DNA of 64,000 bases from a virus, in IMG/VR virus record IMGVR_UViG_3300032286_001864, positions 1 to 64,000 of that record; one strand, written 5' to 3'. How positions within the stretch are numbered: the first letter of the stretch is position 1; every line of letters starts with the position of its first letter. The notes under the pieces were generated by a model. That model was not told the origin of the DNA, did not search any database, and saw nothing but the letters and a program-made list of their open reading frames with translations. The position numbers and the translations under genes are program-made. Positions 4,106 through 56,521 of the stretch are shown piece after piece.

Positions 4106-4396
4106 ATGGCTAGTCATACCGGCATCAACGTGGATCGCTACGCCGGCGAACACCTGATCGCAGCGCTCCATGCCGCCGACGATCAGAAGAAGAAGAAGCG
4201 CGATGTGTCCATGAGTTCTCAGGAGGGCGTATCCAACAAGACGCCGTCCAATGAGTTCCTCGCGATTGGCGTCAACCAAGGAGAGTTCGGCAAGGCAGCT
4301 GCAGATCCCAAGAACCCGTTCTTCAACGCCTATGTCGCTCGCTTGCAGCAATTCCCCGAGTCACAGCCTTCCCCCTCTTCGTCCTCAGCCGCCTGA
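4106..4396 (+). CDS. Small hypothetical protein with RYAG tag
   Basis: TAGCAT box 4079-4084 precedes ATG; MASHTGINVDRYAGEH. Confidence 0.7.
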   Translation: MASHTGINVDRYAGEHLIAALHAADDQKKKKRDVSMSSQEGVSNKTPSNEFLAIGVNQGEFGKAAADPKNPFFNAYVARLQQFPESQPSPSSSSAA

Positions 4397-4402
4397 TTCG
4401 CC

Positions 4403-4951
4403 ATGAGATTCGCTGCTCAAGCATTGCAGGGTCTTAAGGGACTGGCCGGGAGTCGCGTCGGTCGGGCGGTCCTCCCCCAGACCGGTGCGGAATGGCTCAT
4501 GAGCGTCGGACCTAACGTGGCTTTTGCCGGCATGACGGCCATGAACCAGCCCGAAGGGACCGACGGCCTGACTCGCTTCGGGGCCGGCGTAGAGGACCTG
4601 TTTGGCAGCGGGTTACTGCAGACCGTGGGTCGCGGCTTTGGCCATGGGGTTGTTGGCGGGGCTCGCCGCATGGGAGTCCCCCTGAACAGCGAGTGGGGCA
4701 TGGGCATCAAGGGCTTCGCTGAGCTGGGCACCGAGGCACTCGGGTACGGCCTGGTACCAAGGCCTTTCGCGAACAGTGCTTATGAGAGGTTTGAAGAGCG
4801 CATGAGCGAACAGCAGCGCGCTGAACTGGCCGCTCGCGACGAAGAAATTCGCCGGGAGGCGCTGGTCGCTGCCGGGATTCGCGGCTATATGTTCCCGCCA
4901 GGGTTGCAGCTGCCAATGTTCGGCGGTGGCATGAACGAAGGTGCCATCTGA
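4403..4951 (+). CDS. Gly-rich hypothetical protein (MRFAA start), putative virion protein
   Basis: 182 aa; TGATG coupling to next gene. Confidence 0.75.
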   Translation: MRFAAQALQGLKGLAGSRVGRAVLPQTGAEWLMSVGPNVAFAGMTAMNQPEGTDGLTRFGAGVEDLFGSGLLQTVGRGFGHGVVGGARRMGVPLNSEWGMGIKGFAELGTEALGYGLVPRPFANSAYERFEERMSEQQRAELAARDEEIRREALVAAGIRGYMFPPGLQLPMFGGGMNEGAI

Positions 4952-6261
4952 TGGAGACCCCCCGGATCCCCAGGTCAGGCCTTGGGCTGCGGGATGTCTT
5001 CAAGCAGGCTTTCATGGCCGATCCGGACTTCAGGTCCTATGGGAGCGTCGCGGATCCATTTGCGTGGCTGATGCGCCGCTCGAACATCCTCGATGCCGCC
5101 AGGCAGTACGCACCGGACTACCTGCTTGGATACGGCCCTGAAAAGCTCAAGGCGTTCGACGAGCAACGGGCAGTCGACCCCGAGATGCGGCAGAACACTC
5201 TGCGCGTCGGGGACTTCCCTGAGCTCGACGGCAAGGAGGTCAAGCAGGGGCGCGGGCCTGACCTTGCTCGCCGCGGTGCCCAGTTCGCCGGCGCCGCCGC
5301 CAAGGACGCCACGACACAAGGACTCCAGAGCATCTGGTGGTTCCTGAACGCCCCAGAAGCCGCTTCAGTGCTGGCCGCCAGCCAGGCGCAACACGGGGCG
5401 CTGGCGAGCCGCCTGCTGCCGTGGGAGGAGCCGATCCCTCAAGCCCCCGCAGGATCCCCGATCACTCGCCCATCGCTGAGGTTCGCCGCGGCGTTCCCTC
5501 TCGTCCTGGCCGCCTCCGCTGCATCGGGCACCCTGTTCCGTCAACCCGGCTACGGGGCTGTCCTGCCTACCGAGGAGGACAGGAAGGAGAGTGCCGATCC
5601 GATCACCGAGAGGCTCTACCGCACCGTCGGCCGCAGCGGTTCACTGCTGCCTTACAAGGAGTTTGTCCAGGAGCGCCCCGACGTGTCGCCCGGGGAGTAC
5701 GAGTCGTACAAGGCCTTCCTTCATGGCGACAAGGGACTCGTCAAGTTCACTCCGGATGGGATCCATGGGGCGGAGGTCAACTTTGTCGGCAAGTCGATCC
5801 CCCTGCTGACCGGCCTGCTGCCCCTGGTCGGTGGTCTTGCGGCTGGCCGAGCCGGATTGCGGATGGCCGGCAAGCGCTTGGCCGACTCCCCGAGCGGCAA
5901 TCGCTTCGAGGAGCTCCAATCCCTCAGGGAAGCCAAGGACAAAGCGAAGCTCAACCTGACCTACACCAAGGGAGGCTTCGCGCCTGAGGCCCCGGGCGGC
6001 GGGAAGCTGACGACCGAGGAAGCGACCAAGATTCACGCAAGAGCCGTTGAGGATTACACGGCAGCCGCGAATCACGTCGAGTCCAGGCTCCTGCTGGGCA
6101 CCCTGGCCGGCACCTCGGCGGGACTGGGGATCACCGGTGCCGGGGCAATGCTGCTCGAGCAGGTGCGCCGCGCCCGCAACCTGGAGGAACATCGCCTCGC
6201 CGCAGAGGAAGAAGCGAGGCAGCTACAGCTTTCAGGCAGGCCTCCCGAAGGCACCACATAG
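4951..6261 (+). CDS. Hypothetical protein with Gly/Ala-rich hydrophobic segments, putative ejection protein
   Basis: 436 aa, GC-ending codons, hydrophobic stretches (FAAAFPLVLAASA, LLTGLLPLVGGLAAG, LAGTSAGLGITGAGAML). Confidence 0.78.
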   Translation: METPRIPRSGLGLRDVFKQAFMADPDFRSYGSVADPFAWLMRRSNILDAARQYAPDYLLGYGPEKLKAFDEQRAVDPEMRQNTLRVGDFPELDGKEVKQGRGPDLARRGAQFAGAAAKDATTQGLQSIWWFLNAPEAASVLAASQAQHGALASRLLPWEEPIPQAPAGSPITRPSLRFAAAFPLVLAASAASGTLFRQPGYGAVLPTEEDRKESADPITERLYRTVGRSGSLLPYKEFVQERPDVSPGEYESYKAFLHGDKGLVKFTPDGIHGAEVNFVGKSIPLLTGLLPLVGGLAAGRAGLRMAGKRLADSPSGNRFEELQSLREAKDKAKLNLTYTKGGFAPEAPGGGKLTTEEATKIHARAVEDYTAAANHVESRLLLGTLAGTSAGLGITGAGAMLLEQVRRARNLEEHRLAAEEEARQLQLSGRPPEGTT

Positions 6262-6291
6262 AATGCCTGGGTAGACAGAGCGAGAGCTAGC

Positions 6292-6648
6292 GTGAATAGC
6301 GGCTTTGATCCGTTCGATGGGCGCAATCCCTTCCAAGCGGCAGCAGCGCGTGGTCGTGCGAATGAATGGACCAAGATGCGCGCAGAGGAGCAAGCGAAGC
6401 AACGCAGCTACATGCAAGCCATGAACGCCAGCAACGGGCAGGGCGGTGCGCCCGCGCAAGCGCCTGCCTCCTCTCCCCTGCAGCAAGGGCTGGGTGCCGT
6501 GGCAGATAAGGCTGGCGGGTTCCTTGGCGGCGCCCTTGCTAAGGGCCTCTCTGGCATCCTTGGCGGCGGATCGACCGGCTCTTCCTTGTGGGACAAGAGC
6601 GCATCGATCGGCCCGTCGACCTGGATGTCCGGTTTCGGGATCAAGTAG
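6292..6648 (+). CDS. Gly/Ala/Gln-rich hypothetical protein
   Basis: 118 aa, same strand and tightly packed. Confidence 0.65.
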   Translation: MNSGFDPFDGRNPFQAAAARGRANEWTKMRAEEQAKQRSYMQAMNASNGQGGAPAQAPASSPLQQGLGAVADKAGGFLGGALAKGLSGILGGGSTGSSLWDKSASIGPSTWMSGFGIK

Positions 6649-6650
6649 TC

Positions 6651-7885: not shown

Positions 7886-8512
7886 ATGTCCGGCCTTGCC
7901 ACGGTTCCGGCTCATCAGAAGTTCCTGAACAACCTGACCCCTGCTCAGCGACGCTCTATCAGTGCCGCGGGCTTTGCGCTGAGCGGTGTTCCAATTGCGT
8001 TGAGCGCGATGAACGAGCTCAACGGCGACCCGACGAACCCCCTGGCGAACGCCGGCGGAGCGGTCGGGTCGCTGGGGCTTGGCGCAGCTGGCGGTTTCGT
8101 TGGCGGCCTCCTTGGCAGTCCTTTTGGTCCGCTGGGCGCTTTCGCCGGTCGAGCTCTTGGCGGCCTCGCCGGTAGCGCTCTGGGTGGCTCCCTCGGTGAG
8201 GGCGCCGTCAAGGGCGTGCAGGCGCTGACGACTGATCCGGTCGGTACAGAGATTGCTGCCAACGAACGCCGGACCGCGTCGGCCTTGAAGATGCAGCAGT
8301 TGGCCGCATGGCCGCAGCTCTCGATTCAGATGGCTGCTCAGAGGGCTGCTGATGCTTCGCAGGCGCGGCAGGCGACTATTGCGTCGGATCTCAATGCCAG
8401 GAACGCCTACATGCAGGCGCTATTCGGTGCGGCGATGAATCCTGGGCGCTCCTATTCGGATCCCAGCAGCTCTGCGATGCTTTCCAATATCTTTACTCAG
8501 GGGCTGGCCTGA
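7886..8512 (+). CDS. Glycine-zipper-like hypothetical protein, putative ejection protein
   Basis: GxxxG repeats (GGAVGSLGLGAAGGFVGGLLG); TAGAAT box 7854-7859. Confidence 0.75.
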   Translation: MSGLATVPAHQKFLNNLTPAQRRSISAAGFALSGVPIALSAMNELNGDPTNPLANAGGAVGSLGLGAAGGFVGGLLGSPFGPLGAFAGRALGGLAGSALGGSLGEGAVKGVQALTTDPVGTEIAANERRTASALKMQQLAAWPQLSIQMAAQRAADASQARQATIASDLNARNAYMQALFGAAMNPGRSYSDPSSSAMLSNIFTQGLA

Positions 8513-8979
8513 TGACCGTGATCACGCCTGAACCGTTCAGTGGCATCATGGGTGGCGCCTGGGATTACAAGGCTTCGCCCTTCCAGACGCACGAGCTTGC
8601 ACGGGTAAACAATCAGGCGTTACTCGATCAAGCCAGGATCCAGGCGGCCAATCAGATTGACGTGGTCAATGCACAGGGTGCAAACCTTCGCGAGACCAAC
8701 CGTCAGACGGCCCTACTCAATCGCCGGGCCAATGCCCGAGCCAATCTCTTCAACCTTGGCTCAGCATTTGCCAACCTTGGGGGAGTACGGAAGGCGGGCT
8801 CCTCCGACATCCAGGAGAGGCTTTTGGCCCTCGGGGCTCCGGTTTCGGTAAATGATCAGCTGGCCAGCGCCTACACGACCATGACAGGCTTGCGAGGCCT
8901 TCAGGGGGAGATGACCTCCTGGGATAGCCGAAGCGACGCCGCTGTTTCCGCCGCCCTGAGCAATGGCCTTTTCCAGTAG
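8512..8979 (+). CDS. Hypothetical protein
   Basis: 155 aa, TGATG coupling. Confidence 0.7.
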   Translation: MTVITPEPFSGIMGGAWDYKASPFQTHELARVNNQALLDQARIQAANQIDVVNAQGANLRETNRQTALLNRRANARANLFNLGSAFANLGGVRKAGSSDIQERLLALGAPVSVNDQLASAYTTMTGLRGLQGEMTSWDSRSDAAVSAALSNGLFQ

Positions 8980-12432: not shown

Positions 12433-14634
12433 ATGGCCCAGCAAGACACCGGACGCTTTGAGCAGATCCTCGAGGCGGCTCGCGAACGGAAGAGCGACAA
12501 CGGCGCCGACACGACAATCGTGTCCGGGCATCTTGCACAGATGCGGCTGTTCATGCTCCGGCAGGGCATCGAGTTCTACCCCAGGGCCGACACTTACGGA
12601 TTCCGGCACCCGTTCCTTGAGAAGCTGATCGAAGAGAACGAGATCGATCAGCGGCTGGAGGGCATCACTGATGACTTCATCGCTCGGGGCAAGGGGTTGT
12701 GGTTCTTCCGCCCGGTCGGCAACAACTACCGCATCATGTGGTTTGGCCGTGACGACTATAAGGCGTACTACGACTCCGACCTGCAGCTCGAAGAGCTTGA
12801 CCTGATCTATTCCTTCCAGTCCCGGGCCAACGTGGGGGCTCCGGCTCTGCAGCAGCCCGGAGGGGCCAAGAAACAGTACGTCCGGTTGTCGGTCAAGCGG
12901 GATCAGATCGTCGAGAGCATCTCGGACGAGAGGCCGACATTCGATACGCCGCTCCCGGTCGACACTCTCACCGGCCGGCGCCGGACGACCAATAACTCGT
13001 TGGGGTTCGTCCCTGCTATCGAGGCCTTCAATTGGATGCGCTCGACCGGCATGGACGCCACGGGCGACTTCGCTGGACTTGAATCGCACATCCTCAAGCA
13101 CGACCGGCTGGTCCGGAACATCGGGGACAACATCAACTTCTTCGGGAGCCCGACTCTCGTCTCGAGCCGACCTAAGAGCGACCTGGTCGAGGCCGGTGAC
13201 GGCGCTTCCGCTCAGCGACCGACGATCAGCAGCCGTGCGGGCTTCTCCTCAGAGGATCGCTCAAGCACTCGCTTCTCCTTGACCGGTGCGCCGACACTGG
13301 ACGGAAGCGTCAGGGTGCCAAGGCTGATTGCCAATCTTGAGTCAACGGACCGGGTCCAGTACATCTCGCCGAATGCCGTCACCGGTGACCAGAACCTCTA
13401 CGCCCGCCAGTACCGGGAGGAAGTGCGCACGGCTCTCGGGGGCGTCGATGAACTGGGCATCAGCTCCGGCGCTACGGCCTACGAGATCAAGAGCCTCTTC
13501 GGGCGGGCGGCGACTACGGCCCTTCGTAAGTGCCGGGGGCTGCTGACCTACGGGCTCTGCAAGCTGCTGAGCCTGGTGATCTACAACGAGGAGCGGATCT
13601 TCCGCGAGAGCTTCTCGATGGCGGTGAACGTCTTGCCGCCGGATGCTCCGATGAAGGAAGACTTCGAGGGCGACGACGAGGCCTTCTCCGCCGCTGAAGA
13701 GAAGTACCGGGCCGGTTATGCCAAGTATCTGGACAAGCTGGATGCCGCGATCGGGAAGGCGATCGAGAAGCAGGAGTTTCCGCCGGGAGTGGTCGGGCTG
13801 ATCCCGGACGGGGATCGCCGGATCGAATGGCGCTGGAGAGGGCCGGTGTTCGAGGAGTCGACCGAGGACATCCTGAACAACTCGATCGTCGTCCGGAACC
13901 TACAGGAACTCGGGGTCAACTCAATCGAAGCCCTGCGCTACCTGTTCCCGAGCAAAACCGACGAGGAAAGGAGCGCTATGCTCAATGGGTACCCATTCAG
14001 GCTGGCTCAGGCGACGCAGCAAAGCATTGCGACGTTCCTGAACCTCATAGGATCGATGCGGCAAATACCGCATCCTCAAGCGCCCAATCTGCCACTCATC
14101 GCAGACGCCAGGCTCGACCTGACACCCTTCCTCTACCGAACCTTTGATTTCCTCAAGCGGGAGCTGACTTATGCAGGACAGTTTGGTGATGCCCCAGGCT
14201 CAGGCGACCCCGCAGAGCTCGATCCCATCCAACGTGCCCGCGTCAATGCAGGCCGCCCCGTCGATGCAACAGGCGCCGATCGGGCAGCCTTCGTACCCGA
14301 CGCAGCCCAGCTATCAGCAGCCCGCACCGCCGGCCCAGGATCCATGGCAGGCGGCGTACAGCAACCTGGCAGGTCGTTTGAGCGCGACGCCCCAATACCA
14401 GCCCCAGGAGCCCTCATGGGCACCGACCCTATCGGGAAGCGCCTACCAGGCTCCCTACCCTTCGGCCGTTCCCAGCTACCCCCCGGCATACAGTTCGGCG
14501 ACGCCGACCTACGCGCCCCAAGCAATGCCGGCGTATTCGCCGAGCTTGCAGAACGCGTGGCCAAGCGCCCCGAGCGCACCAGTCGCCCAGCACGCTCAGG
14601 GCGTCGACGGGTACCTCGACAACGTCAGCAATGA
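12433..14634 (+). CDS. Portal protein
   Basis: 733 aa immediately after terL, helical character; TAAGAT box 6 nt before ATG; C-terminal ~154 codons overlap the next gene. Confidence 0.8.
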   Translation: MAQQDTGRFEQILEAARERKSDNGADTTIVSGHLAQMRLFMLRQGIEFYPRADTYGFRHPFLEKLIEENEIDQRLEGITDDFIARGKGLWFFRPVGNNYRIMWFGRDDYKAYYDSDLQLEELDLIYSFQSRANVGAPALQQPGGAKKQYVRLSVKRDQIVESISDERPTFDTPLPVDTLTGRRRTTNNSLGFVPAIEAFNWMRSTGMDATGDFAGLESHILKHDRLVRNIGDNINFFGSPTLVSSRPKSDLVEAGDGASAQRPTISSRAGFSSEDRSSTRFSLTGAPTLDGSVRVPRLIANLESTDRVQYISPNAVTGDQNLYARQYREEVRTALGGVDELGISSGATAYEIKSLFGRAATTALRKCRGLLTYGLCKLLSLVIYNEERIFRESFSMAVNVLPPDAPMKEDFEGDDEAFSAAEEKYRAGYAKYLDKLDAAIGKAIEKQEFPPGVVGLIPDGDRRIEWRWRGPVFEESTEDILNNSIVVRNLQELGVNSIEALRYLFPSKTDEERSAMLNGYPFRLAQATQQSIATFLNLIGSMRQIPHPQAPNLPLIADARLDLTPFLYRTFDFLKRELTYAGQFGDAPGSGDPAELDPIQRARVNAGRPVDATGADRAAFVPDAAQLSAARTAGPGSMAGGVQQPGRSFERDAPIPAPGALMGTDPIGKRLPGSLPFGRSQLPPGIQFGDADLRAPSNAGVFAELAERVAKRPERTSRPARSGRRRVPRQRQQ

Positions 14635-15524: not shown

Positions 15525-15845
15525 ATGGCTGATCGTGCCGCAGCCAAAGCGAGGGCCAGTGGTCACATCGAGGTTGCCGGCGAGCGCTTCGAGGGGCTGA
15601 ATCAGCCGAAGCGGACCCCGGGCGCCAACAAGAAATTCGCGGTAGCCGTCAGGAATCCCAGGACCGGTGATCCGCAGATTGTCCGATTCGGCGATCCCTC
15701 GATGGAGAACTACCGCAATGGTCCCAATGGCCGCGGGGGGCATGGCGACGAGGGCCGGCGTGACAACTTCAAGTCCCGGCACAACTGCAGCGAGAAGACC
15801 GACAAGACAACGCCCGGGTACTGGAGCTGTCACTGGTCCTGGTGA
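15525..15845 (+). CDS. Small basic phage protein (IVRFGDP...RHNC...GYWS family), paralog of 53734-54018
   Basis: Very similar to the second copy; motif recalled from cyanophage small proteins. Confidence 0.8.
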   Translation: MADRAAAKARASGHIEVAGERFEGLNQPKRTPGANKKFAVAVRNPRTGDPQIVRFGDPSMENYRNGPNGRGGHGDEGRRDNFKSRHNCSEKTDKTTPGYWSCHWSW

Positions 15846-15884: not shown

Positions 15885-16148
15885 ATGCGGATGGCCGCAG
15901 CAGCGCCGATTGCCGGCCGGTTGTCTCAGCTTCTCCTAGATAGCGACGGCGTCTTGGCGGGCAACCCCAGCTTTGATCTGAGCTACCCCAAGATCCCCGG
16001 CAGGAACGTCGAAGGGGTTCCGAATGCCAACGAGCCGGAGATGCGCAAAAAACTGATGGAGCGATTTCTTCGGAACCCTAGCGGCGGCGAATATCTTCCC
16101 GGCTTCCTGAAGAAAGCAGAAGCGGAGTCTCCTTACCAGCTGCTTTGA
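15885..16148 (+). CDS. Small hypothetical protein (MRMAA start)
   Basis: TAGCAT box 15856-15861. Confidence 0.65.
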   Translation: MRMAAAAPIAGRLSQLLLDSDGVLAGNPSFDLSYPKIPGRNVEGVPNANEPEMRKKLMERFLRNPSGGEYLPGFLKKAEAESPYQLL

Positions 16149-16185: not shown

Positions 16186-16470
16186 ATGCGACTAGCAGGA
16201 AGCCCCGAGGTGTACCAGGCGCTGGTGAAGCACCTCACCAGTGACGAGATGCCACGGCCCGCGGCGGGGCACATGGCAGCCGAGGTGCTGACCCATGGCG
16301 AGGGCGTTGACACCAGTATTGAGCGCTTCAGGCAGGCCTACGAATCGTTCAAGCAGCAGGGGTTCAGCGACGAAGCCGCTCAACATCTCGCCGTTGAGTC
16401 GCTCGAAGAGGGAGAAAGCTACTCCGGAAGAGAGGCGGGAGAGGAGCAGTACCAATCACTGCGGGGCTGA
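16186..16470 (+). CDS. Small hypothetical protein (MRLAG start)
   Basis: TAGCAT box 16159-16164; internal repeat AAGHMAAE/AAQHLAVE. Confidence 0.72.
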   Translation: MRLAGSPEVYQALVKHLTSDEMPRPAAGHMAAEVLTHGEGVDTSIERFRQAYESFKQQGFSDEAAQHLAVESLEEGESYSGREAGEEQYQSLRG

Positions 16471-16474: not shown

Positions 16475-17245
16475 ATGACAACGGTTCCCATTTCCAGCTA
16501 CATCAGCTCCTTCGATCCGGGGAGGGCTCATCATCGCGCCTGGCTGCAGGCGGTCCTCGAGGAGCTGGTGCGCCTGGATCCGGATGCTCTGGATCGGGAG
16601 GGCAGCCTGCACTCGATCTGGAGCGCAGCGGTGCCGGCTAAGCCGTCTACCCCGGCTGGCGTTCCTGCGCCCCTCAGGATCCCGAGCAAGCCCCTGGCGG
16701 TGCCGTATTACAGCCAGAGGGACTCAGCGACGTCCCAAGCGCAGCGGATGTGCTTCTCCAGTTCCTGCGCCATGCTGCTGAGCTACCTGCGCCCGGACGC
16801 CTTGAAGGGTCCGAATGGGGACGATCAGTACCTGCGCACGGTTCAAAGCTTTGGAGACACGACTGATGCGCAGGCTCAGCTGAAGGCCCTGGCCAAGTTC
16901 GGTGTCAAGGCGCGCTACGTGCAGGACGCTGACTTCCGGTTGATCCAGAGTCAGATCGATCGAGACGTCCCGGTACCTTGCGGCTACCTGCACCGCGGGC
17001 CGATTGAGCGGCCCTCGGGCGGAGGGCACTGGCTGATCGTGATCGGATACAACACCAAGGGCATCATCGTGAACGACCCGTTCGGGGAGCCCGACCTGCT
17101 GAGGGGCACGACTTTGAACTCTTCCGGGAAGGGGCTGAGCTTGACGAGGGAGAACTTCGGCCGGCGTTGGATGGTTGAAGCGGTAGGCGGCGGAGGGTAT
17201 CGCTACGCCCCGGGGAAGGGCTGGGCGATCGTTGCTGAGCCCTGA
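16475..17245 (+). CDS. C39-like cysteine peptidase (cyanophage type)
   Basis: YYSQRD...MCFSSSCAM (Cys), GGHWLIVIGY (His), VNDPFG (Asp). Confidence 0.85.
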   Translation: MTTVPISSYISSFDPGRAHHRAWLQAVLEELVRLDPDALDREGSLHSIWSAAVPAKPSTPAGVPAPLRIPSKPLAVPYYSQRDSATSQAQRMCFSSSCAMLLSYLRPDALKGPNGDDQYLRTVQSFGDTTDAQAQLKALAKFGVKARYVQDADFRLIQSQIDRDVPVPCGYLHRGPIERPSGGGHWLIVIGYNTKGIIVNDPFGEPDLLRGTTLNSSGKGLSLTRENFGRRWMVEAVGGGGYRYAPGKGWAIVAEP

Positions 17246-19851: not shown

Positions 19852-19925
19852 ATCGCTGCCGCTAGCGTAAGGCCTGGCACGCAACCCGCGCGCTTTATCC
19901 CTCATCGCTCGGAGCATTTCTTCCC

Positions 19926-21068
19926 ATGTGGGTCGATAATGATTTCCCGAAGGTGCTGGGTGCCGAGCTCTACCGGCCCCATCCCGCCTACGTGATCGAA
20001 ATGGCCGTGGACCCCGTTGTGGTCCATGACTTCGGTGCGCAGCCCGGGCAAACGGTGCAGCTGGATCGGTACCGCTATTGGGGGAATCCTGGCACCAAGG
20101 ATTCCCGCGAGCGCACCGCTGATCAGACCATCGGCACAAGCTCCTCTCGGAACATCGTCAAGGAAAAGGTCCCTGTGACCCTTAAGGAGTACACGGGTCC
20201 TGCCGACCCGCAGAACTCCAGTCAGGCGAGCACCTTCAAGGTCGCTCGGGAAACCCTGATCACTGCTCAGCGCCTGCTGATTGACACAGCGTCCCTGCCG
20301 GTCTTCCACCAGAGCATCGGTTCGATGACCCTGCTGGACGACTATCGCCGCTGGCGCGATCGCGTCTTCGCGGACGAGCTGTTCAAGGCCGAGGCCAACG
20401 GGAAGTCCGACTCCGTCCAGGGCGGCTACTACTTCCCCAAGAGCAAGACCAAGACGGGTGTCACCGTCGCGGCGTACGACGCGAACCAGTCTGCCAAGTT
20501 CGGCGTGAAGGATGACCTCCTCGAGGTCGTTCTGCAGCTGCGCAAGCGCAACGTGCCGACCTTCGCTGATGGGAACTATCGAGCCATCCTCGATCCCACC
20601 GCGATGAAGCACATGCGGCAGGACTCCGACTTCCGCGAAGTGGCCCGCTATCCCGGCTCCGGGATGGTTGACCCCAGCCAGCCGTACCTCGCTCCTAACG
20701 CCAGCTTCTACACGGGCATGGGCCCTGGCTACGGCCAGGCCGGCTTCGTGGCAGGGCAACCTGTCATGCCGACCGGCTTCGTGTTTGAGGGCGTTCGCTT
20801 CTTCGAGTCGACCAACCTGCCCGAGAAGTCGTTTACCGCAACCATTCCGGTGACCGGTAACAGCTCCTCCGCTACCTATGAAGCAGCCCCCCTGCTGTTC
20901 TTCGGGATGCAGGCAATCGGTGTCGGCATCGGTGGCGAGAACGCTCAGATCCTGCTGAACAACAACGACGACTTCAGTCGTTTCATCATCATGATCTGGT
21001 CGCTGTACGCCGGTTTCGAGATCCTGAACAGGGATTTCGTGACGGTTGCATACTCTTTCGTCTACTGA
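19926..21068 (+). CDS. Major capsid protein
   Basis: 380 aa, strongly C/G-ending codons, GQTVQLDRY and FEGVRFFESTN segments typical of HK97-fold capsids; GGAG RBS. Confidence 0.88.
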   Translation: MWVDNDFPKVLGAELYRPHPAYVIEMAVDPVVVHDFGAQPGQTVQLDRYRYWGNPGTKDSRERTADQTIGTSSSRNIVKEKVPVTLKEYTGPADPQNSSQASTFKVARETLITAQRLLIDTASLPVFHQSIGSMTLLDDYRRWRDRVFADELFKAEANGKSDSVQGGYYFPKSKTKTGVTVAAYDANQSAKFGVKDDLLEVVLQLRKRNVPTFADGNYRAILDPTAMKHMRQDSDFREVARYPGSGMVDPSQPYLAPNASFYTGMGPGYGQAGFVAGQPVMPTGFVFEGVRFFESTNLPEKSFTATIPVTGNSSSATYEAAPLLFFGMQAIGVGIGGENAQILLNNNDDFSRFIIMIWSLYAGFEILNRDFVTVAYSFVY

Positions 21069-37309: not shown

Positions 37310-37344
37310 CCCTTGGCTAGGGTTGCCCCGCTGCAGCCACGGAA

Positions 37345-43041: not shown

Positions 43042-43105
43042 CGGGTCACCCAAGCAACAATGGCAATAACAACAGCACCAAATAATAGTGTTGTCTGATA
43101 GTCAG

Positions 43106-43573
43106 TCATCGGTCCATCTCCTCACGCAGCCAAAGCGAGCAGCCGTGAAGCCCATACCGATCCAGCCAAACTGCCACCTCGCGGATAGCAGCGCGGGCAT
43201 TCTCTTCTAAATCAATCTCGCCAGCCACCATGACTTTCTTGACCAACCCCCCGGCAGGAGCGGGCGGTGCAGGCGGCGATTCGTTGACTGGAAGCACCAA
43301 GGTGCCTTTTTGATGATTGTCATAAATGATCTTGCCGTCAGCAATTCTTCGGATTTCAATCCAGCAGGTTTCGAGGCAGTGAACTATAACTTTTGGCAAC
43401 TCATCATCCGTGGCCACCGGGGCAGCCTCGGGGGTGGGGGCAGACTGGGCCAGGGTGGCGCGGGCGGCGGCGATAGCAGTTTGCCAATCCTGGATCCAGC
43501 CGGCCGCTGTCTTCATCGATACGGTGTCATCCAACCCAACCAGCCGCTCCAGGGCGGTGCGGATATCACTCAT
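43106..43573 (-). CDS. Mosaic hypothetical protein
   Basis: MSDIRTALERL...ARATLAQ and PAPAGGLV...ARAAIREVA.WL modules around an AT-rich insert. Confidence 0.68.
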   Translation of the reverse strand: MSDIRTALERLVGLDDTVSMKTAAGWIQDWQTAIAAARATLAQSAPTPEAAPVATDDELPKVIVHCLETCWIEIRRIADGKIIYDNHQKGTLVLPVNESPPAPPAPAGGLVKKVMVAGEIDLEENARAAIREVAVWLDRYGLHGCSLWLREEMDR

Positions 43574-43874
43574 GGCTGTTCCCCCAGCGATACAGGAATC
43601 CCTTCAGGATCTCCCGCCCACGAATCACCGGCTCCCTGTGCGTGGCCAGGCCCTGGATAGCCATCACCACCTGGTCTAGCTGCTGATCCGTCGGCGGGGC
43701 TTTTATTGATCTCGTCGTTGGCCATGCTGCAGCGACTACAAAGGGCAGGAAAATACCAAAAGAAATGCTAAACCATTTGATTGCAAACAAGCGCGAGTTT
43801 GGCTTTGATCTGCGCCGACCTTTGACGCGAACCTTTTTAGGTGGTTCGTCGTAGATATTAGATGAATTACTCAT
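43566..43874 (-). CDS. Small membrane protein
   Basis: One hydrophobic segment; AT-rich; overlaps neighbours. Confidence 0.55.
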   Translation of the reverse strand: MSNSSNIYDEPPKKVRVKGRRRSKPNSRLFAIKWFSISFGIFLPFVVAAAWPTTRSIKAPPTDQQLDQVVMAIQGLATHREPVIRGREILKGFLYRWGNSHE

Positions 43875-44055
43875 GACCAGCCTCCCGCGGGCCGGGCAGC
43901 GGCTGCAATTCAGTCCAGGTGGCGGGAGCTTCGTCGTTGCCAACGATCAGCCACCAGGCGCGGCCAAACTGATCAATTGCGTCAAGAATATGGATGCCGT
44001 TCGGGTTGACCGTGCGGGTCAATCTGACAAAGCGGCGGGGTCGTTGTTCAGGCAT
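43867..44055 (-). CDS. Small hypothetical protein
   Basis: HILDAIDQFGRAWW motif; GGGAGG before the next start. Confidence 0.62.
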   Translation of the reverse strand: MPEQRPRRFVRLTRTVNPNGIHILDAIDQFGRAWWLIVGNDEAPATWTELQPLPGPREAGHE

Positions 44056-51074: not shown

Positions 51075-51461
51075 ATGTTCAGGCGTTCAGTTGCTGAGGT
51101 GCTGTCGCGGGGGACCGCCGAGACGCTCGGGGATGCCATCCGCAGTGGCGTGATGACGGACATCGAGGGTTACCCGATGTTCTTCCGTGATGCGCCGAGC
51201 GAGGATGCGCAGCGGCGGATCACCAAGAAGTTGGGGCATCCGGAGGGGAGGACGTTCACGGCCGAGGAGCTCGAGGCGATCGCCAGAGGAGCCGGGGTGA
51301 ATGGGGAGATCAACGATGAGCTGCTCAAGGCGATGCAAGCCCTGTACGACAACCACGACCCACGGCGGATGGCAGGGGCCGCGTTGCTGGGGGCCCTGGG
51401 CGCCGGCACTGGGATTGCGCTGCTGACGCCGGGCAAGGAGGAGCGGGGGTCCCATGCCTGA
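51075..51461 (+). CDS. Hypothetical protein with C-terminal RMAG and hydrophobic tail
   Basis: TAGACT box 51046-51051; overlaps next start. Confidence 0.7.
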   Translation: MFRRSVAEVLSRGTAETLGDAIRSGVMTDIEGYPMFFRDAPSEDAQRRITKKLGHPEGRTFTAEELEAIARGAGVNGEINDELLKAMQALYDNHDPRRMAGAALLGALGAGTGIALLTPGKEERGSHA

Positions 51462-52731
51462 TTACTCGGCCGGTTGGATCACAGTTCCGGGCAAGGGGCG
51501 CAGGTGGCGTACTAGCAAAGGCGAGTACATGGCGCAGCGCCCGGCAGGTGACGCGCCTGGGGTGATGGGCGCGATTCAAGGGGCTTGGGCCGGGGCGGAT
51601 AGGGCCGTGGGCGGCTGGCTGCCCGGGGGCGGCGTAGCAAACCCCGCAAGCGGGGCGGTTCGAGGTGTCTCGAAAGCGGCCCTAGGGGGCGGTGTCCTTG
51701 CCTCGATGCCTCGTCTAGCCGTGGGTGACGCAGCGGGAATCGGGGGCTACTTTGGCATTGCGGCAGCGGCAGGTGCCCTTACCCCTGTGCTCCAGAAGAT
51801 CGCGGGGAGCGGAGGCCGGCCCTCGGTAGGAGTGCTGGGCCAACAAATGAAAGTACTGAATAGTGCGCACAAGTATCTGGGCGAGATGGGATCGGGCGTT
51901 AATCAGGGCGCGATGATCGAAGACGCAACCCGTGACGCAAAGGGGCTGGAGCCTGCTCCTCGCCCCGCCAAGGGCAAGATGATTGACTTCAGTACGGATG
52001 GCTCGCCTATCGGACCGGCCTACCAGCCAGTGGGGTCTGCTTACCTAAAAGGAAAGGTTGCAATAAATCAAGACACGCCGGCCTGGGTGCTCGCTCACGA
52101 GTTTGGCCATGCAGCTGATCACGTCAAAAGACCCGGCTCGTTCACGTCGACTGACCAATTGCAGAATATGCCAAGATCACAGCAAGAGGGATACGTGAAC
52201 AGCGCAAGGTCAAGGATGACCGGCGCGAGCGCAGGAGTTGGGACTTTGTTTGCCCGTCCCGGTGATGGGAACCGCAGCGTGCTGGAAGCCGGCGTCCAAG
52301 GAGCTCTCTTGGGCCTTGCATCCAATTGGGACACCCTGGCCAAGGAAGCAAGGGCGGACATCCATGGGATGAGGATTGCCAGGAATGCAGGCGTACCCTG
52401 GAACACGAAACAGAACCTTGCCGCCAAAGGCTCGTACGTGCTGGGCACAGCGGGTCCCGGCTTCATCCAAGGCGCCGCCGGAGAGGTAATTTCGAGGGGG
52501 GTGGATCAAGCGTCAAAGGTGTTGAAAGATGCCGTCGTCGATCCAGCGTTGCGCAACGTTCGTGGCGGCGATAGCCCCGCGGAACAGAGCTTGCGTAAGT
52601 ACGGATACAACCCCGAGCAGTATGCGCTGGGCGCCCCCTCTGACCAAGGGGAGTCTTTTGGCCGGGGGGACCTCGGGGTAAGGAAGCGCCATCCGATTGG
52701 CTCAGCGGTGATGCGAGGGTGGGCGAAATGA
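51454..52731 (+). CDS. HExxH zinc metallopeptidase-like protein, Gly/Ala-rich
   Basis: VLAHEFGHA...KEARADIHG...GSY. Confidence 0.75.
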   Translation: MPDYSAGWITVPGKGRRWRTSKGEYMAQRPAGDAPGVMGAIQGAWAGADRAVGGWLPGGGVANPASGAVRGVSKAALGGGVLASMPRLAVGDAAGIGGYFGIAAAAGALTPVLQKIAGSGGRPSVGVLGQQMKVLNSAHKYLGEMGSGVNQGAMIEDATRDAKGLEPAPRPAKGKMIDFSTDGSPIGPAYQPVGSAYLKGKVAINQDTPAWVLAHEFGHAADHVKRPGSFTSTDQLQNMPRSQQEGYVNSARSRMTGASAGVGTLFARPGDGNRSVLEAGVQGALLGLASNWDTLAKEARADIHGMRIARNAGVPWNTKQNLAAKGSYVLGTAGPGFIQGAAGEVISRGVDQASKVLKDAVVDPALRNVRGGDSPAEQSLRKYGYNPEQYALGAPSDQGESFGRGDLGVRKRHPIGSAVMRGWAK

Positions 52732-53087
52732 GCGGCATGCGAATGGCTGGTGCTGCGTTTGGAGCAGGGGCCGCGCTCGGGGCTGGAGGCCTTGCCCTGG
52801 CCCAGCACCTGATTGAGCAGGGCACGCCGACCTACGCGCGCGAGATGTCGCAAGAGGAGCATGCAAAGAACAACCTGGGCGGCCTCCGGCAGCGCCAGGG
52901 TGACATGTCGGTGAAGGACCTGGCCCTCTACGAAGGGATCCGCCAAGGGCTGATGTCCGGTGAGGTCAGCGGCGAGGAGGTGTACGGGCTCGTGAAGGGC
53001 GGGAAGCTGCCGGCGCGGGTCGTCTCCTTGCTGGGTGATGTGATCGACCTGGGCGCGTATATGCCGCCTCCAACTCCAGGAGCCTGA
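52728..53087 (+). CDS. Hypothetical protein (MSGMRMAG) with N-terminal hydrophobic segment
   Basis: ATGA overlap. Confidence 0.72.
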   Translation: MSGMRMAGAAFGAGAALGAGGLALAQHLIEQGTPTYAREMSQEEHAKNNLGGLRQRQGDMSVKDLALYEGIRQGLMSGEVSGEEVYGLVKGGKLPARVVSLLGDVIDLGAYMPPPTPGA

Positions 53088-53089
53088 CC

Positions 53090-53218
53090 ATGGCCATCCG
53101 CAAAGCCGGAGACAAGCTTGCCGCCGCCTGCTGGAAGGGCTACGAAGCCATCGGCACGAAGATCAAGGACGGCCGCCAGGTGCCGAATTGCGTGCCAGTG
53201 AAGAAGGGGCGCCGCTGA
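53090..53218 (+). CDS. 42-aa CWKGY...VPNCVP motif peptide (MAIRKAG start)
   Basis: Translated by hand: MAIRKAGDKLAAACWKGYEAIGTKIKDGRQVPNCVPVKKGRR; AGGAG RBS; below ORF-track cutoff. Confidence 0.78.
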   Translation: MAIRKAGDKLAAACWKGYEAIGTKIKDGRQVPNCVPVKKGRR

Positions 53219-53284
53219 TGGCCAGTATTCGCGAAAGAAGCACAGGTACAGCAGCCGTAGAATCACCATGACGCTCTAGCTGCC

Positions 53285-53734
53285 ATGACACCTGCCCCGT
53301 ACGCAAGAACTGCTTCGCAGTACATGAGTGCTCCAAGTGCGTCTCTTGCTGAAGCGTTGCTTGCCAGCTACTTGGAAAAAGCTAAACAGGTTGCCGCCAA
53401 TAACCCCAAAGCTCGGTTTGGTTACTACGACGAGAACGGGGTTCCTCAGTACAGCTCGAACCCTGAGTATGCGGGCTTGAATTGGCGGAATCAAACAGCA
53501 GAGGGAGGGCCTGACGTGGAAGGGAATTTGTACGACCCGAATCATCCTTCATTGCCGATGATGTGGAGTAGCGATGCACCTAGCGTGATGCGCAGAAACT
53601 TGCTGGGGATGCAGGCCACAGAAGAGTGGGATGGAGCAAGACACCTTGGAGCTGGACAGAGCAGCCTGCCCGCCCAGCGGGAACTAGAGCTTGCTTATCT
53701 TCGGCCCCTGGCTGCGGACGATTTGCCGTACTAA
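53285..53734 (+). CDS. Hypothetical protein, lower GC
   Basis: TAGAAT box 53258-53263; TAATG coupling. Confidence 0.62.
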   Translation: MTPAPYARTASQYMSAPSASLAEALLASYLEKAKQVAANNPKARFGYYDENGVPQYSSNPEYAGLNWRNQTAEGGPDVEGNLYDPNHPSLPMMWSSDAPSVMRRNLLGMQATEEWDGARHLGAGQSSLPAQRELELAYLRPLAADDLPY

Positions 53735-54018
53735 TGGCCAGCATCCGTTACGCCGGCGAAATCTTTCAGGGCTACAACCAGCCCAAGCGAACGCCTGGCG
53801 AAAACAAGAAGTTCGCCGTGCTGGTCAAGGACAACGACGGTGATCAGAAGATCGTGCGCTTTGGGGATCCATCGATGGAGAACTACCGCAATGGCCCGCA
53901 CGGCAGGGGCGGCCATGGCGATGAGGATCGTAGGGTGAATTTCAAGGCCCGCCACAACTGCAGCGAGAAGAACGACAAGACCACACCGGGGTACTGGAGT
54001 TACCACTGGAGCTGGTGA
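53734..54018 (+). CDS. Small basic protein, paralog of 15525-15845 (MASIRYAG start)
   Basis: Shared NQPKRTPG...IVRFGDPSMENYRNGP...RHNCSEK...GYWS.HWSW. Confidence 0.8.
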   Translation: MASIRYAGEIFQGYNQPKRTPGENKKFAVLVKDNDGDQKIVRFGDPSMENYRNGPHGRGGHGDEDRRVNFKARHNCSEKNDKTTPGYWSYHWSW

Positions 54019-54023
54019 GATTC

Positions 54024-54305
54024 ATGGAGAACCGCATGGCCGGCGAAAAACTGGCACTGCTGATTGCCAGGAAGTACGCGGAGGGCGACCACTTGGTCGA
54101 CGGTGGACCCGATGTCGGACTGTTCTGGGCAAGCAACATCCAGGACCCGTCGACTTTGCCCGTGCTTTCGATACAACACGCGCGAGACGTGCTGGCCGCT
54201 CGAGGGACAGAACAGAGAGGTCGTATTCACTTCACCGATTATGCCCTGCAAGGCTCAAGTGATCGATGGTCGCCGCAAGTCGGCAGCTGGCCGGAGGCAG
54301 CATGA
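54024..54305 (+). CDS. Small hypothetical protein (MENRMAG start)
   Basis: GGAG upstream, ATGA overlap downstream. Confidence 0.65.
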   Translation: MENRMAGEKLALLIARKYAEGDHLVDGGPDVGLFWASNIQDPSTLPVLSIQHARDVLAARGTEQRGRIHFTDYALQGSSDRWSPQVGSWPEAA

Positions 54306-55249
54306 CGTTTCAGATGCCCATGAACTTCAAGTACACCCGGCAGGGCCCGGATGGCTGGAAGTTCTATGGCACGCCGGGTACGCCGGCGACCACGATGGAC
54401 GCCATCATGCAGGGTCTGCGCACATCGACATTGCGCAAAGGATTGAGTCGAGGCCTTGAGCCTGGGTCCAACGTCCTGTTCACGGATAACGATGGCCGCC
54501 GCCAGCCGGCAATCGTGACCGGCAAGCGCATGGTCGATCCCTCCATGGCGGAGGAATTGTCCAGGACCGAGCGCTGGACACCGGAGTTCCTGCGCTGGTA
54601 CATGGGTCAGAACGGCCTGGACAACGGTCGGATGGAGCAGCTGCTGTACCAACTGCCAAGCCAGGGCGTGATTGCAACCCCGCGCATGGCCGGAGACGCC
54701 TTGATCGCCGCGGCTGCAGCGCCGACCGGGCCGATCTGGGCCTTTGGCGGGGCAAGAGCTACTCCGCCGGACGTGCTTGAGCTGATCTCCCAGATCGGCA
54801 AGAAGCACGCCGAGAGCGGCGGACGCATCGTCCATGGCGGAGCCCCCGGCGCAGATCGCGCTGCATCGCGGCTGGTGAGCAATCCAGAGGCGCTATCGAT
54901 TCTTCTGCCTGGTCCCAACGATCCCCGCGGGCCGGATCCTCAGTACGCCGGGGGACGCGTCTTCGATGCCACTCAGCTTCCAACTTGGGAGCGGGCTCAT
55001 GCGATCGCCAGGCAGTACGAAGACCCGTACCGTCCGGGCGGACGGAACTACAACGCTCGCAACGTGATGGTGCTGCTGGGGCCCGGGCTTGATGCACCTC
55101 GAGAGAAGCTCGTGGTCTGGTCACCGGGCGCGCAAGCCATCGGTGGCACTGGCCACGCCATCCGCACCGCCGAGGGCCACGGGATCCCGGTACGGAACCT
55201 GGCGGACCCCGCAATTCGGGCTGCCGCGGAGCAGTGGCTGAGGGCCTGA
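54302..55249 (+). CDS. ASCH-like + SLOG (DprA/Smf-like) two-domain protein
   Basis: TMDAIMQGLRTSTLR...ERW; GGARATP, HGGAPGAD, ARN, GGTGHAI...GIPVRNL. Confidence 0.78.
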   Translation: MTFQMPMNFKYTRQGPDGWKFYGTPGTPATTMDAIMQGLRTSTLRKGLSRGLEPGSNVLFTDNDGRRQPAIVTGKRMVDPSMAEELSRTERWTPEFLRWYMGQNGLDNGRMEQLLYQLPSQGVIATPRMAGDALIAAAAAPTGPIWAFGGARATPPDVLELISQIGKKHAESGGRIVHGGAPGADRAASRLVSNPEALSILLPGPNDPRGPDPQYAGGRVFDATQLPTWERAHAIARQYEDPYRPGGRNYNARNVMVLLGPGLDAPREKLVVWSPGAQAIGGTGHAIRTAEGHGIPVRNLADPAIRAAAEQWLRA

Positions 55250-55301
55250 GTCGCCCTCGTTAGCCTGGGCTGGCGCCTGACAACCAGCGAGACGGAAGCC
55301 T

Positions 55302-55628
55302 GTGTCTCACAGAATCGAAGGGTCGGAGCTGGTTTCGAAACGTGTCACCAAGAACAGCTTCAGGCGAGAGATCATCAACGCCTGGGACGGGTGCTGCGCC
55401 TACTGCGGCTGTCGGCCTGAGAAGATCACGCTCGATCATGTGGTGCCCAAGGTCAAGGCCGGGACAACGCAGAAGAGCAACCTGGTGCCAGCCTGCGCTC
55501 CATGCAACGTCTCAAAGAACCACTGCGATGTCTGGCAGTGGTACGCAGAGCAGGCGTTCTACTGCGCTGGCAAGGAGGGAGTGATCAGGGAATGGTTGGA
55601 ATCCAACGCCGCCGCGGACGGGGGTTGA
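55302..55628 (+). CDS. HNH endonuclease (McrA-like, intact motifs)
   Basis: CAYCG...TLDHVVP...NLVPACAPCNVSK. Confidence 0.9.
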   Translation: MSHRIEGSELVSKRVTKNSFRREIINAWDGCCAYCGCRPEKITLDHVVPKVKAGTTQKSNLVPACAPCNVSKNHCDVWQWYAEQAFYCAGKEGVIREWLESNAAADGG

Positions 55629-55643
55629 GCGGCTGCCTGGCGG

Positions 55644-55877
55644 TCAGAAGTAACCAGCGACGGCACCAACCGGCACGATGGGGATGCCAGCGCCGCGGAC
55701 GACCAGGCAACCGTAGTTGCCCTGACCGCAGCTGTTGTTCATGAGCTTGCCGATGTTGCGAACCCAGCCGTAGCCGCCGGCACCAAGGACTACGACAAGG
55801 ATGAGGACGAGAATGCCGGTGGAGACAGCCTCGGGGTCAAAGCCAAATGAGCGAGAGGAGTTCTTGGGGCCGTCCAT
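55644..55877 (-). CDS. Small membrane protein
   Basis: GILVLILVVVLG...GWVRNI.KL...RGAGI..VPVGAV. Confidence 0.68.
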   Translation of the reverse strand: MDGPKNSSRSFGFDPEAVSTGILVLILVVVLGAGGYGWVRNIGKLMNNSCGQGNYGCLVVRGAGIPIVPVGAVAGYF

Positions 55878-55952
55878 GAAACGTCTTGAGGTGCAGAGGT
55901 GTTCTACAGGAGCGGCGGGCAGGTTGCAAGCCGTGTCAAGCGCCAGCAACCC

Positions 55953-56150
55953 CTAGCCCCACTTGCTGGCGTTGAGAGCGAAGTTGGCCTTCTTGACCAG
56001 GCCAGGGCTGTGCTCGTCTTTGTGGGCCAGGACATGCCGGGCGTACTCCTGCACGCCCGTGCCGGCTTTGGTGGCAGAGGCGGTGAAGGATCCCTTCGTG
56101 CCGCCTTGCGACATGGCCTTCTGCATGCGCTCACCAGCGAAGCGTGTCAT
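55953..56150 (-). CDS. Small basic protein (MTRFAG start; GSFT...KKANFALNA motif)
   Basis: 65 aa; motif recalled from phage virion/cargo proteins. Confidence 0.75.
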   Translation of the reverse strand: MTRFAGERMQKAMSQGGTKGSFTASATKAGTGVQEYARHVLAHKDEHSPGLVKKANFALNASKWG

Positions 56151-56521
56151 GGGTGCTGCGGCTGCTCCTGATCCCGCATCATCATGACGGCCGGGATCCC
56201 GCCTGCGATGGCACCGGCCAGGGCTCCGTAGGCACCGCGACGAGCGCTCTGACGTTCGAGTCGCTCGACCTCAAGGAGACTCTTAACGGAACGGGGCCTG
56301 ACTGAGTGAGCTCCGGCAAGGGCGCCTCCCGTGGCGGTTGCGTAGGGCAGTAGGGAGATGAGTAGGTTGAGAGGAATCTCTCCAGAGTTCGACCCGTTGG
56401 TATCGCCCAAGAAGAGGTCGGCGGCGCCGTAGATGCCAGTAGTCCCCAGCCCCAGCTGAGCAAGAGTGTTGACAGCCAATGCGTGCAGGTCTGAATCGCT
56501 GCCCGCAAAACGCGTGTTCAT
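56147..56521 (-). CDS. Gly-rich membrane-like protein (MNTRFAG start)
   Basis: 124 aa, ATGA overlap. Confidence 0.72.
   Translation of the reverse strand: MNTRFAGSDSDLHALAVNTLAQLGLGTTGIYGAADLFLGDTNGSNSGEIPLNLLISLLPYATATGGALAGAHSVRPRSVKSLLEVERLERQSARRGAYGALAGAIAGGIPAVMMMRDQEQPQHP

Follow-up and report, generated by a model that had tools for sequence, protein, structure and literature searches.

RESULTS

Genes of the window and a peptide shared by unrelated proteins

The stretch of DNA analyzed here, which in its full length we call the window, is the first 64 kb (positions 1 to 64,000) of the 81,948-bp virus record IMGVR_UViG_3300032286_001864 (~62% G+C), and the subject of this report is a short peptide, R-φ-A-G (φ, hydrophobic), that stands near the start of many of its small proteins and that we call the tag. 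Judged by its sequence, the virus is an S-EIV1-like cyanophage, and the sole match to its portal in the phage collection was the polar Synechococcus phage S-EIV1 (42% portal identity). Pfam and PHROGs scans covered the 84 genes of the window, the last 18 kb of the genome being left out, and recognized a large terminase, a portal-type protein and a major capsid protein; two Gp80-type fiber N-terminal domains and an SLT-domain protein of the internal-virion type; and a serine recombinase, an NblA-like protein, ThyX, a primase-helicase and an exonuclease. Genes were called with a codon-score caller of our own rather than a standard tool and are named by their first coordinate. The caller trimmed 4403, 15885 and 16186, and for all three we used the starts of a first-pass annotation made from the sequence alone, which the orthologs back. 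Relatives were taken from IMG/VR with the portal, the exonuclease and the 53734 family as anchors, with records joined from consecutive pieces, and are numbered from G001.

Ten window genes carry R-[FYMLK]-A-[GA] close to the N-terminus, and rereading reproduced every one of the ten N-termini given in the first-pass annotation. In the structural block, gene 4106 (4106..4396, plus strand, 96 residues), which lies in the part upstream of the terminase gene, has the tag DRYAGEHLIAAL at residues 10 to 21 (..VDRYAGE; core at nucleotides 4136-4147), and 4403 (4403..4951, plus strand) encodes a Gly-rich protein of 182 residues that starts MRFAAQALQGL and belongs to a family conserved clade-wide. Gene 15885 (15885..16148, plus strand, 87 residues, MRMAAAAP) sits between the portal and capsid genes, and 16186 (16186..16470, plus strand), an acidic protein of 94 residues that starts MRLAGSPE, represents the most conserved tagged family. 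An eleventh tagged gene, 79512 (79512-79733, MDRFAGD), lies outside the window and brings the tagged genes of the structural block to five. The other six lie close together. On the plus strand are 52728 (52728..53087, 119 residues), which starts MSGMRMAGAAFGAG (MSGMRMAG) and continues with a Gly/Ala-rich hydrophobic stretch; 53090 (53090..53218), a basic protein of 42 residues in which the tag IRKAGDKLAAA (from MAIRKAGD) is followed by a CWxGY..VPNC module; 53734 (53734..54018), a DUF5754/phrog_7595 protein of 94 residues that starts MASIRYAGEIFQGYN (MASIRYAGE); and 54024 (54024..54305, 93 residues), which starts MENRMAGEKLALLIA (MENRMAGE). On the minus strand are 55953 (55953..56150), a basic protein of 65 residues that starts MTRFAGERMQKAM (MTRFAGE), and 56147 (56147..56521, 124 residues), which starts MNTRFAGSDSDLHAL (MNTRFAGS).

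Copies are also found inside proteins. The internal RMAG copies reported earlier were found again at residue 140 of 54266 (54266..55249, plus strand, 327 residues), where PRMAGDALIAAAA stands between an N-terminal domain and a DprA/SLOG-like domain (residues 158 to 326); at residue 98 of 51075 (51075..51461, plus strand, 128 residues), where RRMAGAALLGALG directly precedes a hydrophobic tail; and at residue 304 of 4951 (4951..6261, plus strand, 436 residues), a protein with hydrophobic segments that reads LRFAA at residue 177 and LRMAGK at residue 304. A further copy, RKAGSSDIQERL, is at residue 93 of 8512 (8512..8979, plus strand, 155 residues).

The tagged proteins otherwise appear unrelated. 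The best pairwise blastp match among the 11 tagged proteins has an E of 0.026, on which ground paralogy was rejected and the earlier statement that they share no other similarity holds. Moreover, codons do vary between copies of the motif, and no listed motif match was found in the terminase, portal, capsid, primase-helicase or ThyX genes, both as had been proposed.

The motif is concentrated at N-termini

R[FYMLK]A[GA] occurs 10 times within the first 14 residues of the 84 window genes, where about 0.41 occurrences are expected (3.5e-4 per position), and 9 times in the 17,227 remaining positions, where about 6.0 are expected. The strict form R[FYM]AG is found 7 times at N-termini versus 0.109 expected and 3 times elsewhere versus 1.21 expected. 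Over the whole 82-kb genome, 10 of 118 called genes carry R[FYMLK]A[GA] at the N-terminus (0.63 expected), a count in which the caller misses 16186 and adds 79512. The motif, however, was defined post hoc from the same data, and scans that presuppose no motif were therefore run. When 4- and 5-mers were scanned exhaustively with residues sorted into nine classes, basic-hydrophobic-A-G-acidic ("+hAG-") and basic-hydrophobic-A-G ("+hAG") were the top N-terminal patterns, and the observed p was reached by 0 of 200 internal-window sets and 0 of 200 shuffled sets; the comparison with controls that the first-pass annotation had put forward came out on the side of enrichment. Two other scans did not reach significance. 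An exact gapped-tripeptide scan ranked R.AG fifth (7 versus 1.57 expected, p 1.2e-3), which fails multiple-testing correction, and a BLOSUM seed count placed the motif as the top seed at three thresholds (9, 6 and 5 proteins), with control maxima of 8-10, 6-7 and 4-5. C-termini show no enrichment, and general C-terminal use of the motif was rejected on that basis, with the 16186 family as the exception. We conclude that the motif is real.

Two side observations concern the tagged genes and their surroundings. The heptamer CTAGCAT occurs on the plus strand in exactly four copies in the window, at 4078, 15855, 16158 and 31783, each 28-33 nt upstream of a start codon: those of 4106 (28 nt), 15885 (30 nt), 16186 and 31816, three of which are tagged genes. 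The element is promoter-like and fits a TANNNT -10-like element. Outside the window, the adjacent minus-strand paralogs 67686-68123 and 68116-68301 read ..AARGKFAGDDD.. and ..AAQGKFPGDND..; KFAGD in the first is a tag-like copy at residue 17, and KFPGD in the second is a degraded copy.

Selection acts on the peptide

Aligned copies give a tag of about 11 residues, R-φ-A-G-[DES]-x-φ-x-x-[AL]-φ. In the 16186 family, all 12 genomic copies have the same MRLAG, in which R is written with 3 different codons, L and A with 4 each and G with 3. Among 26 aligned homologs of 16186 from a search of 5.8 billion proteins, 23 have an N-terminal MRLA[GA], and the remaining 3 begin at a Met further in; a second copy near the C-terminus is present in 15 of the 26. 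In other families the hydrophobic position is exchanged among F, Y, M and L in orthologs of 39-59% identity in which adjacent residues diverge, and flanking residues and codons change in diverged orthologs while the tag stays. Selection on the tag is at the level of the peptide, and the earlier claim of conservation at the protein level is borne out by this persistence through synonymous changes.

Individual families show how the tag is kept, varied and lost. All four orthologs of 56147 are tagged (RFAGS, RFAGS, RMAGS at 52% identity and RMAGE at 39% identity), as are both orthologs of 54024, which read RMAGE in G006 and, in a 45%-identical ortholog from L012, MRFAGG with an insertion right after the tag. 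The 4403 family has R-φ-A-[AG] near the N-terminus in 8 of 10 orthologs, the other two deviating as RFAF and RFPM, and the S-EIV1 gene at the matching position begins MRLAGRLAE. The tag of 52728 is kept in G006. Orthologs of 4106 read RYAGD in G006 and RFAGD in G008 and have lost the tag in G001, and 15885 is tagged in G001 and has a different, untagged N-terminus in G008; counted over orthologs, the tag is present in 2 of 3 for 4106, 1 of 2 for 15885 and 2 of 8 for 55953, so that it is gained and lost within families. Internal copies at domain starts are conserved as well: that of 54266 is kept in G001 and G006 and appears in G007 as SRMAGQALIAS, and at residue 93 of 8512 both G001 and G006 read RFAGSPELQKLL, like the N-terminus of 16186. 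The copy in 51075 is kept in G001 and G006 and reads RLLAG in G008.

Three other explanations of the conservation were rejected. A DNA- or RNA-level signal does not fit, as codon positions 1 and 2 are fixed, position 3 varies and the motif also occurs in a genome of 49% G+C. A Shine-Dalgarno-like reading of the A-G-E codons was discarded because those codons are GCC GGC GAA and similar. Finally, a true start at the M of R-M-A-G is contradicted by conservation of the upstream R and by F, Y and L variants that have no Met there.

Further observations concern single genes of the relatives. In G006, two adjacent and otherwise unrelated minus-strand genes (40978-41262 and 41259-41573) both begin with MTTIRYAG, and 22 of the 24 nt for these 8 residues are identical, which looks like recent copying of a tagged 5' end. 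In G007, the minus-strand gene 13911 encodes one protein with two tandem tags, RRRMAGEGEDPDEKGVDSRRFAGDALNKIV. In G001, a 94%-identical homolog of 54266 (25738-26703) contains one in-frame TGA.

The tag is clade-wide but not general

The N-terminal enrichment recurs in the close lineage, with tags on 6 of 107 genes in G001, 8 of 73 in G006, 3 of 36 in G007 and 7 of 127 in G008. G009 is more distant, a complete 84,978-bp genome of 49% G+C with a portal 60% identical to that of the window; "+hAG" is its top N-terminal pattern (6 versus 0.38 expected), as it also is in G006 and G008, and 4 of its 7 tagged proteins have no blastp match in the genome of the window phage. With the diverged orthologs and the gain and loss inside families, these unrelated proteins of another lineage bear out the description of the tag as portable. 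S-EIV1 (KJ410740) has an N-terminal variant of its own, φ-A-G-K-Y-[AS]: AGKY occurs 4 times versus 0.31 expected (genes 15480, 50430, 60269 and 48012-48629), three of them within the first 13 residues. The heptad GKYAGLP of this variant is also present in gp114 of a T4-like cyanophage. The consensus drifts by lineage, with F/Y/M in the window phage, L in G009 and AGKY in S-EIV1. In G002 to G005 just two families are tagged, and in the unrelated cyanophage KBS-S-2A the tag is found in 0 of 62. The tag is clade-wide among S-EIV1-like phages, yet it is not general.

These distributions bear on whether the peptide has a common receptor at all. The resemblance between tagged proteins could instead be structural convergence and drift within one clade, built from a favored N-terminal helix start (hydrophobic and small residues with a capping D, E or S, as in G-S-P-E), sequence intrinsic to particular families and local copying of 5' ends. 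Every copy is indeed followed, after the glycine, by an amphipathic helix-like stretch; DUF5754 proteins have the segment as part of the domain; the neighboring G006 genes do share 8 copied codons; and the gapped-tripeptide and BLOSUM scans were not significant. A general structural preference, however, should also appear in internal windows, where 0 of 200 controls reach the observed enrichment, and it should appear in sister lineages and other phages, where G002 to G005 and KBS-S-2A show little or none of it. Moreover, the R and hydrophobic residue conserved through synonymous changes lie upstream of the helix, and the tag recurs on unrelated proteins in G009. We consider an explanation that dispenses with a receptor unlikely.

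Three tagged modules recur in head proteins of other phages

Most tagged proteins belong to no known family, and searches of the phage collection with 4403 and 54024, of the Atlas with 16186 and of Protein Data Bank sequences with 53734, 16475, 782-4048 and 55953 returned no match. A likeness of 16186 to the Cpl-7 CW_7 cell-wall-binding repeat (5i8l) was set aside as unreliable: the summed E is 4.4e-6, each repeat scores only ~11 bits and interferon tau scores similarly. Three tagged proteins, however, are modules that occur elsewhere in the context of the phage head.

The first is 53734, which matches phrog_7595 at an E of 2.7e-19 and belongs to that family; its match to Pfam DUF5754 (E 5.6e-6, 26.7 bits) falls just under the 27.4-bit cutoff. 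The same module forms the C-terminal part of Gp125 of Vibrio phage ICP1, which is annotated as "capsid protease", matches PF14550 (Peptidase_S78_2) at an E of 3.5e-10 and is encoded between the portal and scaffold genes. The KBS-S-2A copy stands between a head-morphogenesis gene on one side and, on the other, the capsid gene with a gene that is scaffold-like. In the window itself, an untagged DUF5754-type paralog of 53734 (15525..15845, plus strand, HIEVAGERFEGLN) lies between the portal and capsid genes. Many homologs of 53734 read IRYAGE, and several 90%-identity clusters of this subgroup include members on contigs of 77-88 kb; the complete 85-kb G009 is represented as well.

The second module, that of 53090, was found in 11 longer proteins, of which 4 have PF14550 and 3 have PF04860 (portal); two of the S78_2 proteins bear it at the C-terminal end. 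It is also present in a "gp114" and a "structural protein" of T4-like cyanophages. The third, 55953, shares 62% identity with part of a protein from a crass-like phage. In cr108_1 this segment follows a crAss_CARG1 domain (crassvirus cargo protein 1; E 2.9e-58), in cr10_1 the module is a free protein of 75 residues encoded between the portal/peptidase genes and the major capsid protein gene, and in cr127_1 it heads a lysozyme-type protein. The CARG1 domain (PF25725) was not found in 55953 itself, which has no Pfam match, and the similarity is limited to the module that follows the domain. Cargo protein 1 of ΦcrAss001 is described as detected in virions by mass spectrometry, with fragments resolved inside the capsid and tail (PMC10172136).

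No candidate protease follows the tag

The first-pass annotation had proposed that the tag marks proteins for cleavage, with a C39 peptidase and two HExxH proteins as candidate enzymes. Neither part of the proposal found support. No prohead protease was found by Pfam or PHROGs in the 84 window genes, and the sole protease family matched there was that of a C39-like lysin-type gene. That gene, 16475 (16475..17245, plus strand), matches Pfam Peptidase_C39_2 at an E of 9.5e-10 and PHROG 10051, "endolysin", at an E of 1.2e-63 and by these matches more likely encodes a virion-associated or lysis peptidoglycan hydrolase than a tag protease. By tblastn it is present in G001 and S-EIV1 only, with a match in G008 to residues 7-60 alone, and was not found in G002 to G007 or G009. 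It is not coinherited with the tag, as the 16186 family is present in G002 to G005 and G009 with no C39-like match. The HExxH protein 51454 (51454..52731, plus strand, 425 residues, HEFGH at residue 215) shows weak structural hints of Zn-peptidase or SprT-like folds, has no Pfam or PHROG match and has no homolog in 10 related genomes; the other HExxH protein, 40942, has one among the same genomes only in G001. All three candidates were rejected on distribution, as reader of the tag and as protease.

The motif might still be mainly a cleavage site, at or after A-G-[DES], with which a phage or host protease trims leaders and separates domains in a maturation like that at prohead-protease sites. 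Such a site would suit the variable leader of 1 to 10 residues before the motif, the internal copies at domain boundaries (residue 140 of 54266 and residue 93 of 8512), the copies at both ends of the 16186 family and one family in which the tag is N-terminal in G001 and G008 and follows a 115-residue extension in G006. Set against this are the absence of a prohead protease from the Pfam and PHROGs results, the three candidates that do not follow the tag and a leader that can be a single residue (M-R-L-A-G), which offers a protease very little to recognize. We regard a cleavage site as improbable.

As an observation apart, the gene after 16186 family members is always a cell-wall hydrolase: 16475-17245 and its S-EIV1 counterpart are C39-like, and those of G002 (36404-37570) and G009 (69408-70592) are other endolysin types. 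The pattern suggests a conserved N-terminus onto which different catalytic cassettes can be swapped.

Copies in a membrane-like protein

Across 17 aligned rows of the 4951 family, R-φ-A-[AT] stands at residue 177 in 16, all but S-EIV1, and R-[MK]-A-G stands at residue 304 in 11, the others reading RRGG, RRGL, KRGM (three rows) and, in S-EIV1, VKNR. In a further reading, the tag would join ejection or membrane-channel proteins to one another and not to the capsid, with N-terminal peptides binding the membrane-like 4951 to build an ejection complex. Adjacent 4403 and 4951 both carry the motif, Gly/Ala-rich hydrophobic stretches occur in tagged 52728, 56147 and 51075, and the crass protein that bears the cargo protein 1 domain has a similar stretch. 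Most tagged proteins, however, are small and soluble-looking and lack a hydrophobic segment (53090, 53734, 54024, 55953 and 16186), and we think an ejection complex of this sort very improbable.

Other features of the genome

Several features of the window lie apart from the tag. The serine recombinase (30346-31614, minus strand) and the NblA-like gene (34778-35125, plus strand) sit within the structural block. Marine relatives with NblA and an integrase are described in a preprint (10.1101/325100), and the two genes fit the lysogeny-capable S-EIV1-like marine lineage reported there; its authors recognized the large terminase, the portal, the major capsid protein and putative tail proteins and could identify no structural proteins beyond these. 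A Gp80-type fiber N-terminal domain (MPFSQYLA.NLLNWHR) is common to 17261-17680 (minus strand, 139 residues) and 26148-28409 (plus strand, 753 residues), which suggests a single docking domain serving alternative fibers. Finally, the capsid gene is in 2 or 3 pieces in several relatives (G002, 41111-44027; G009, 63055-64375; S-EIV1, 61540-62010), with an opposite-strand gene splitting the pieces in G002, and a LAGLIDADG-type gene (19219-19905, minus strand) is directly upstream of the intact capsid gene of the window. The capsid gene is therefore likely to harbor introns or homing elements.

DISCUSSION

How the tag might act is suggested by the company its proteins keep in other phages. We propose that S-EIV1-like cyanophages use the tag, [RK]-[FYML(K)]-A-G-[DES]-x-φ-x-x-[AL]-φ at the start of a protein or domain, as a portable address. 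The peptide would form an extended R-φ-A stretch, then a glycine and then the first turns of a helix, and would dock diverse small proteins onto one common receptor of the assembling head, whether scaffold, capsid protein or portal. Candidate receptors are the portal-type protein (12433..14634, plus strand; phrog_20475, E 4e-164) and the major capsid protein (19926..21068, plus strand; phrog_1357), which lacks an N-terminal tag and is 74-89% identical in relatives. Docked proteins would thereby be taken into the virion and would probably reach the host together with the DNA. Elsewhere the same cargo modules would enter the head fused to a capsid protease, portal-domain proteins or a cargo protein, and here they would be free-standing, with the tag in place of the fusion. 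Removal of the tag by a protease lies outside the proposed mechanism, because no protease was found. A head-targeting role is plausible from sequence and remains putative; we put the probability that the tag is a docking peptide that loads small proteins into the assembling head at about 0.4. The first-pass annotation had already suggested loading of capsid cargo, and that part of its suggestion gains circumstantial backing from the context of the three modules in the head proteins of other phages, whereas the part concerning cleavage does not. The position of five tagged genes in the structural block speaks for the head as well.

Several results weigh against a head address. Six of the tagged genes, 52728 to 56521, have regulatory and replication-type genes around them, and two of the six are read from the minus strand, upstream of the exonuclease gene. 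Tagged proteins are not clearly more basic than others: a pI above 8 is found in 4 of 10, and among 66 untagged small proteins the share is 29%. R-φ-A-G is absent from the crass, ICP1 and T4-like forms of the three modules, and in the 53734 family Y-x-G-E-x-F is intrinsic and is found far outside the clade (as YRGE), such that only the R and A set the IRYAGE subgroup apart. In 4951 the copies stand beside membrane-like segments and may be a separate feature. Moreover, only two families are tagged in G002 to G005, and the de novo p was reached in G009 by 31 of 200 internal-window and 7 of 200 shuffled sets and in G008 by 64 and 49 of 200, respectively. G009 and G008 therefore lend support only as a test of a prespecified motif.

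The nonstructural neighborhood of 52728 to 56521, with its HTH regulator, DprA/SLOG-like gene and exonuclease, would suit a partner outside the head. The tag might dock onto a host protease or chaperone as a signal for timed degradation, or onto a phage or host hub protein, such that an accessory set is coregulated or colocalized. Degradation signals in bacteria often sit at the N-terminus, to which the motif is strictly confined; the phage encodes an NblA-like adaptor; and drift of the consensus between lineages fits coevolution with any type of partner. A partner of this kind leaves unexplained, however, why three of the modules occur within capsid protease, portal-domain and cargo proteins elsewhere and why two clade-wide tagged families are positioned in the structural block. 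We judge it rather unlikely and prefer the head address.

The nearest precedents for a head address are two phage systems. In T-even phages, diverse internal proteins have only a capsid-targeting sequence in common, according to the account in PMC3012670, and the phage studied here likewise has a short N-terminal peptide, portable in principle, as the sole feature common to unrelated small proteins. Unlike T4, it has no T4-type prohead protease or scaffolding core among the Pfam and PHROGs matches in the window, and it belongs to an unrelated clade and has podovirus-like Gp80-type fiber domains. In phage P1, DarB needs no more than its N-terminal 30 residues to be targeted into the capsid (PMC9024508), so that there too an N-terminal stretch directs a protein into the head; the signal is presented in that account on DarB and not as a motif of many proteins. 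No report of an R-φ-A-G motif was found in our searches of the literature on cyanophage capsid targeting and on S-EIV1.

Other comparisons are looser. ICP1 Gp125, the portal-domain proteins and crassvirus cargo protein 1 contain the same small modules as 53734, 53090 and 55953, but there the modules are covalent parts of head proteins or stand in the head gene cluster and lack R-φ-A-G, and here they are separate tagged genes. C39 double-glycine leaders resemble the tag in having a pair of small residues (A-G here) near the N-terminus, and a C39-like gene adjoins two tagged genes; that gene, however, is of the Peptidase_C39_2 type with an endolysin PHROG match and is not codistributed with the tag, and leaders here can be one residue long. 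In encapsulins, a short terminal cargo-loading peptide brings varied cargo into an HK97-fold shell, and the tag may resemble it in principle only, as a short terminal peptide for varied cargo. A bolder form of the proposal, in which a changeable set of small cargo proteins is loaded in encapsulin fashion, without a protease, by a very short peptide that binds capsid or scaffold directly, and in which modules fused elsewhere are free plug-in genes here, strikes us as quite unlikely.

If the tag targets the head, no signal of its kind would have preceded it beyond the T4 and P1 models, and its setting would be a clade of freshwater and marine cyanophages that is abundant yet little studied. Such a role would account for the way in which the same small modules turn up in distant phages as fusions with proteases, portal-domain proteins and cargo proteins, and were direct binding to capsid or scaffold to hold, the tag could be used to package foreign proteins into a cyanophage. 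The cultured relative S-EIV1 carries a variant of the tag, and the idea is therefore directly testable. Should the tag serve another partner, it would still be a rare clade-wide short linear motif in phage proteins. Ultimately, a head address would provide a sequence rule with which to predict the "hypothetical" proteins that are carried in the virion and enter the host with the DNA.

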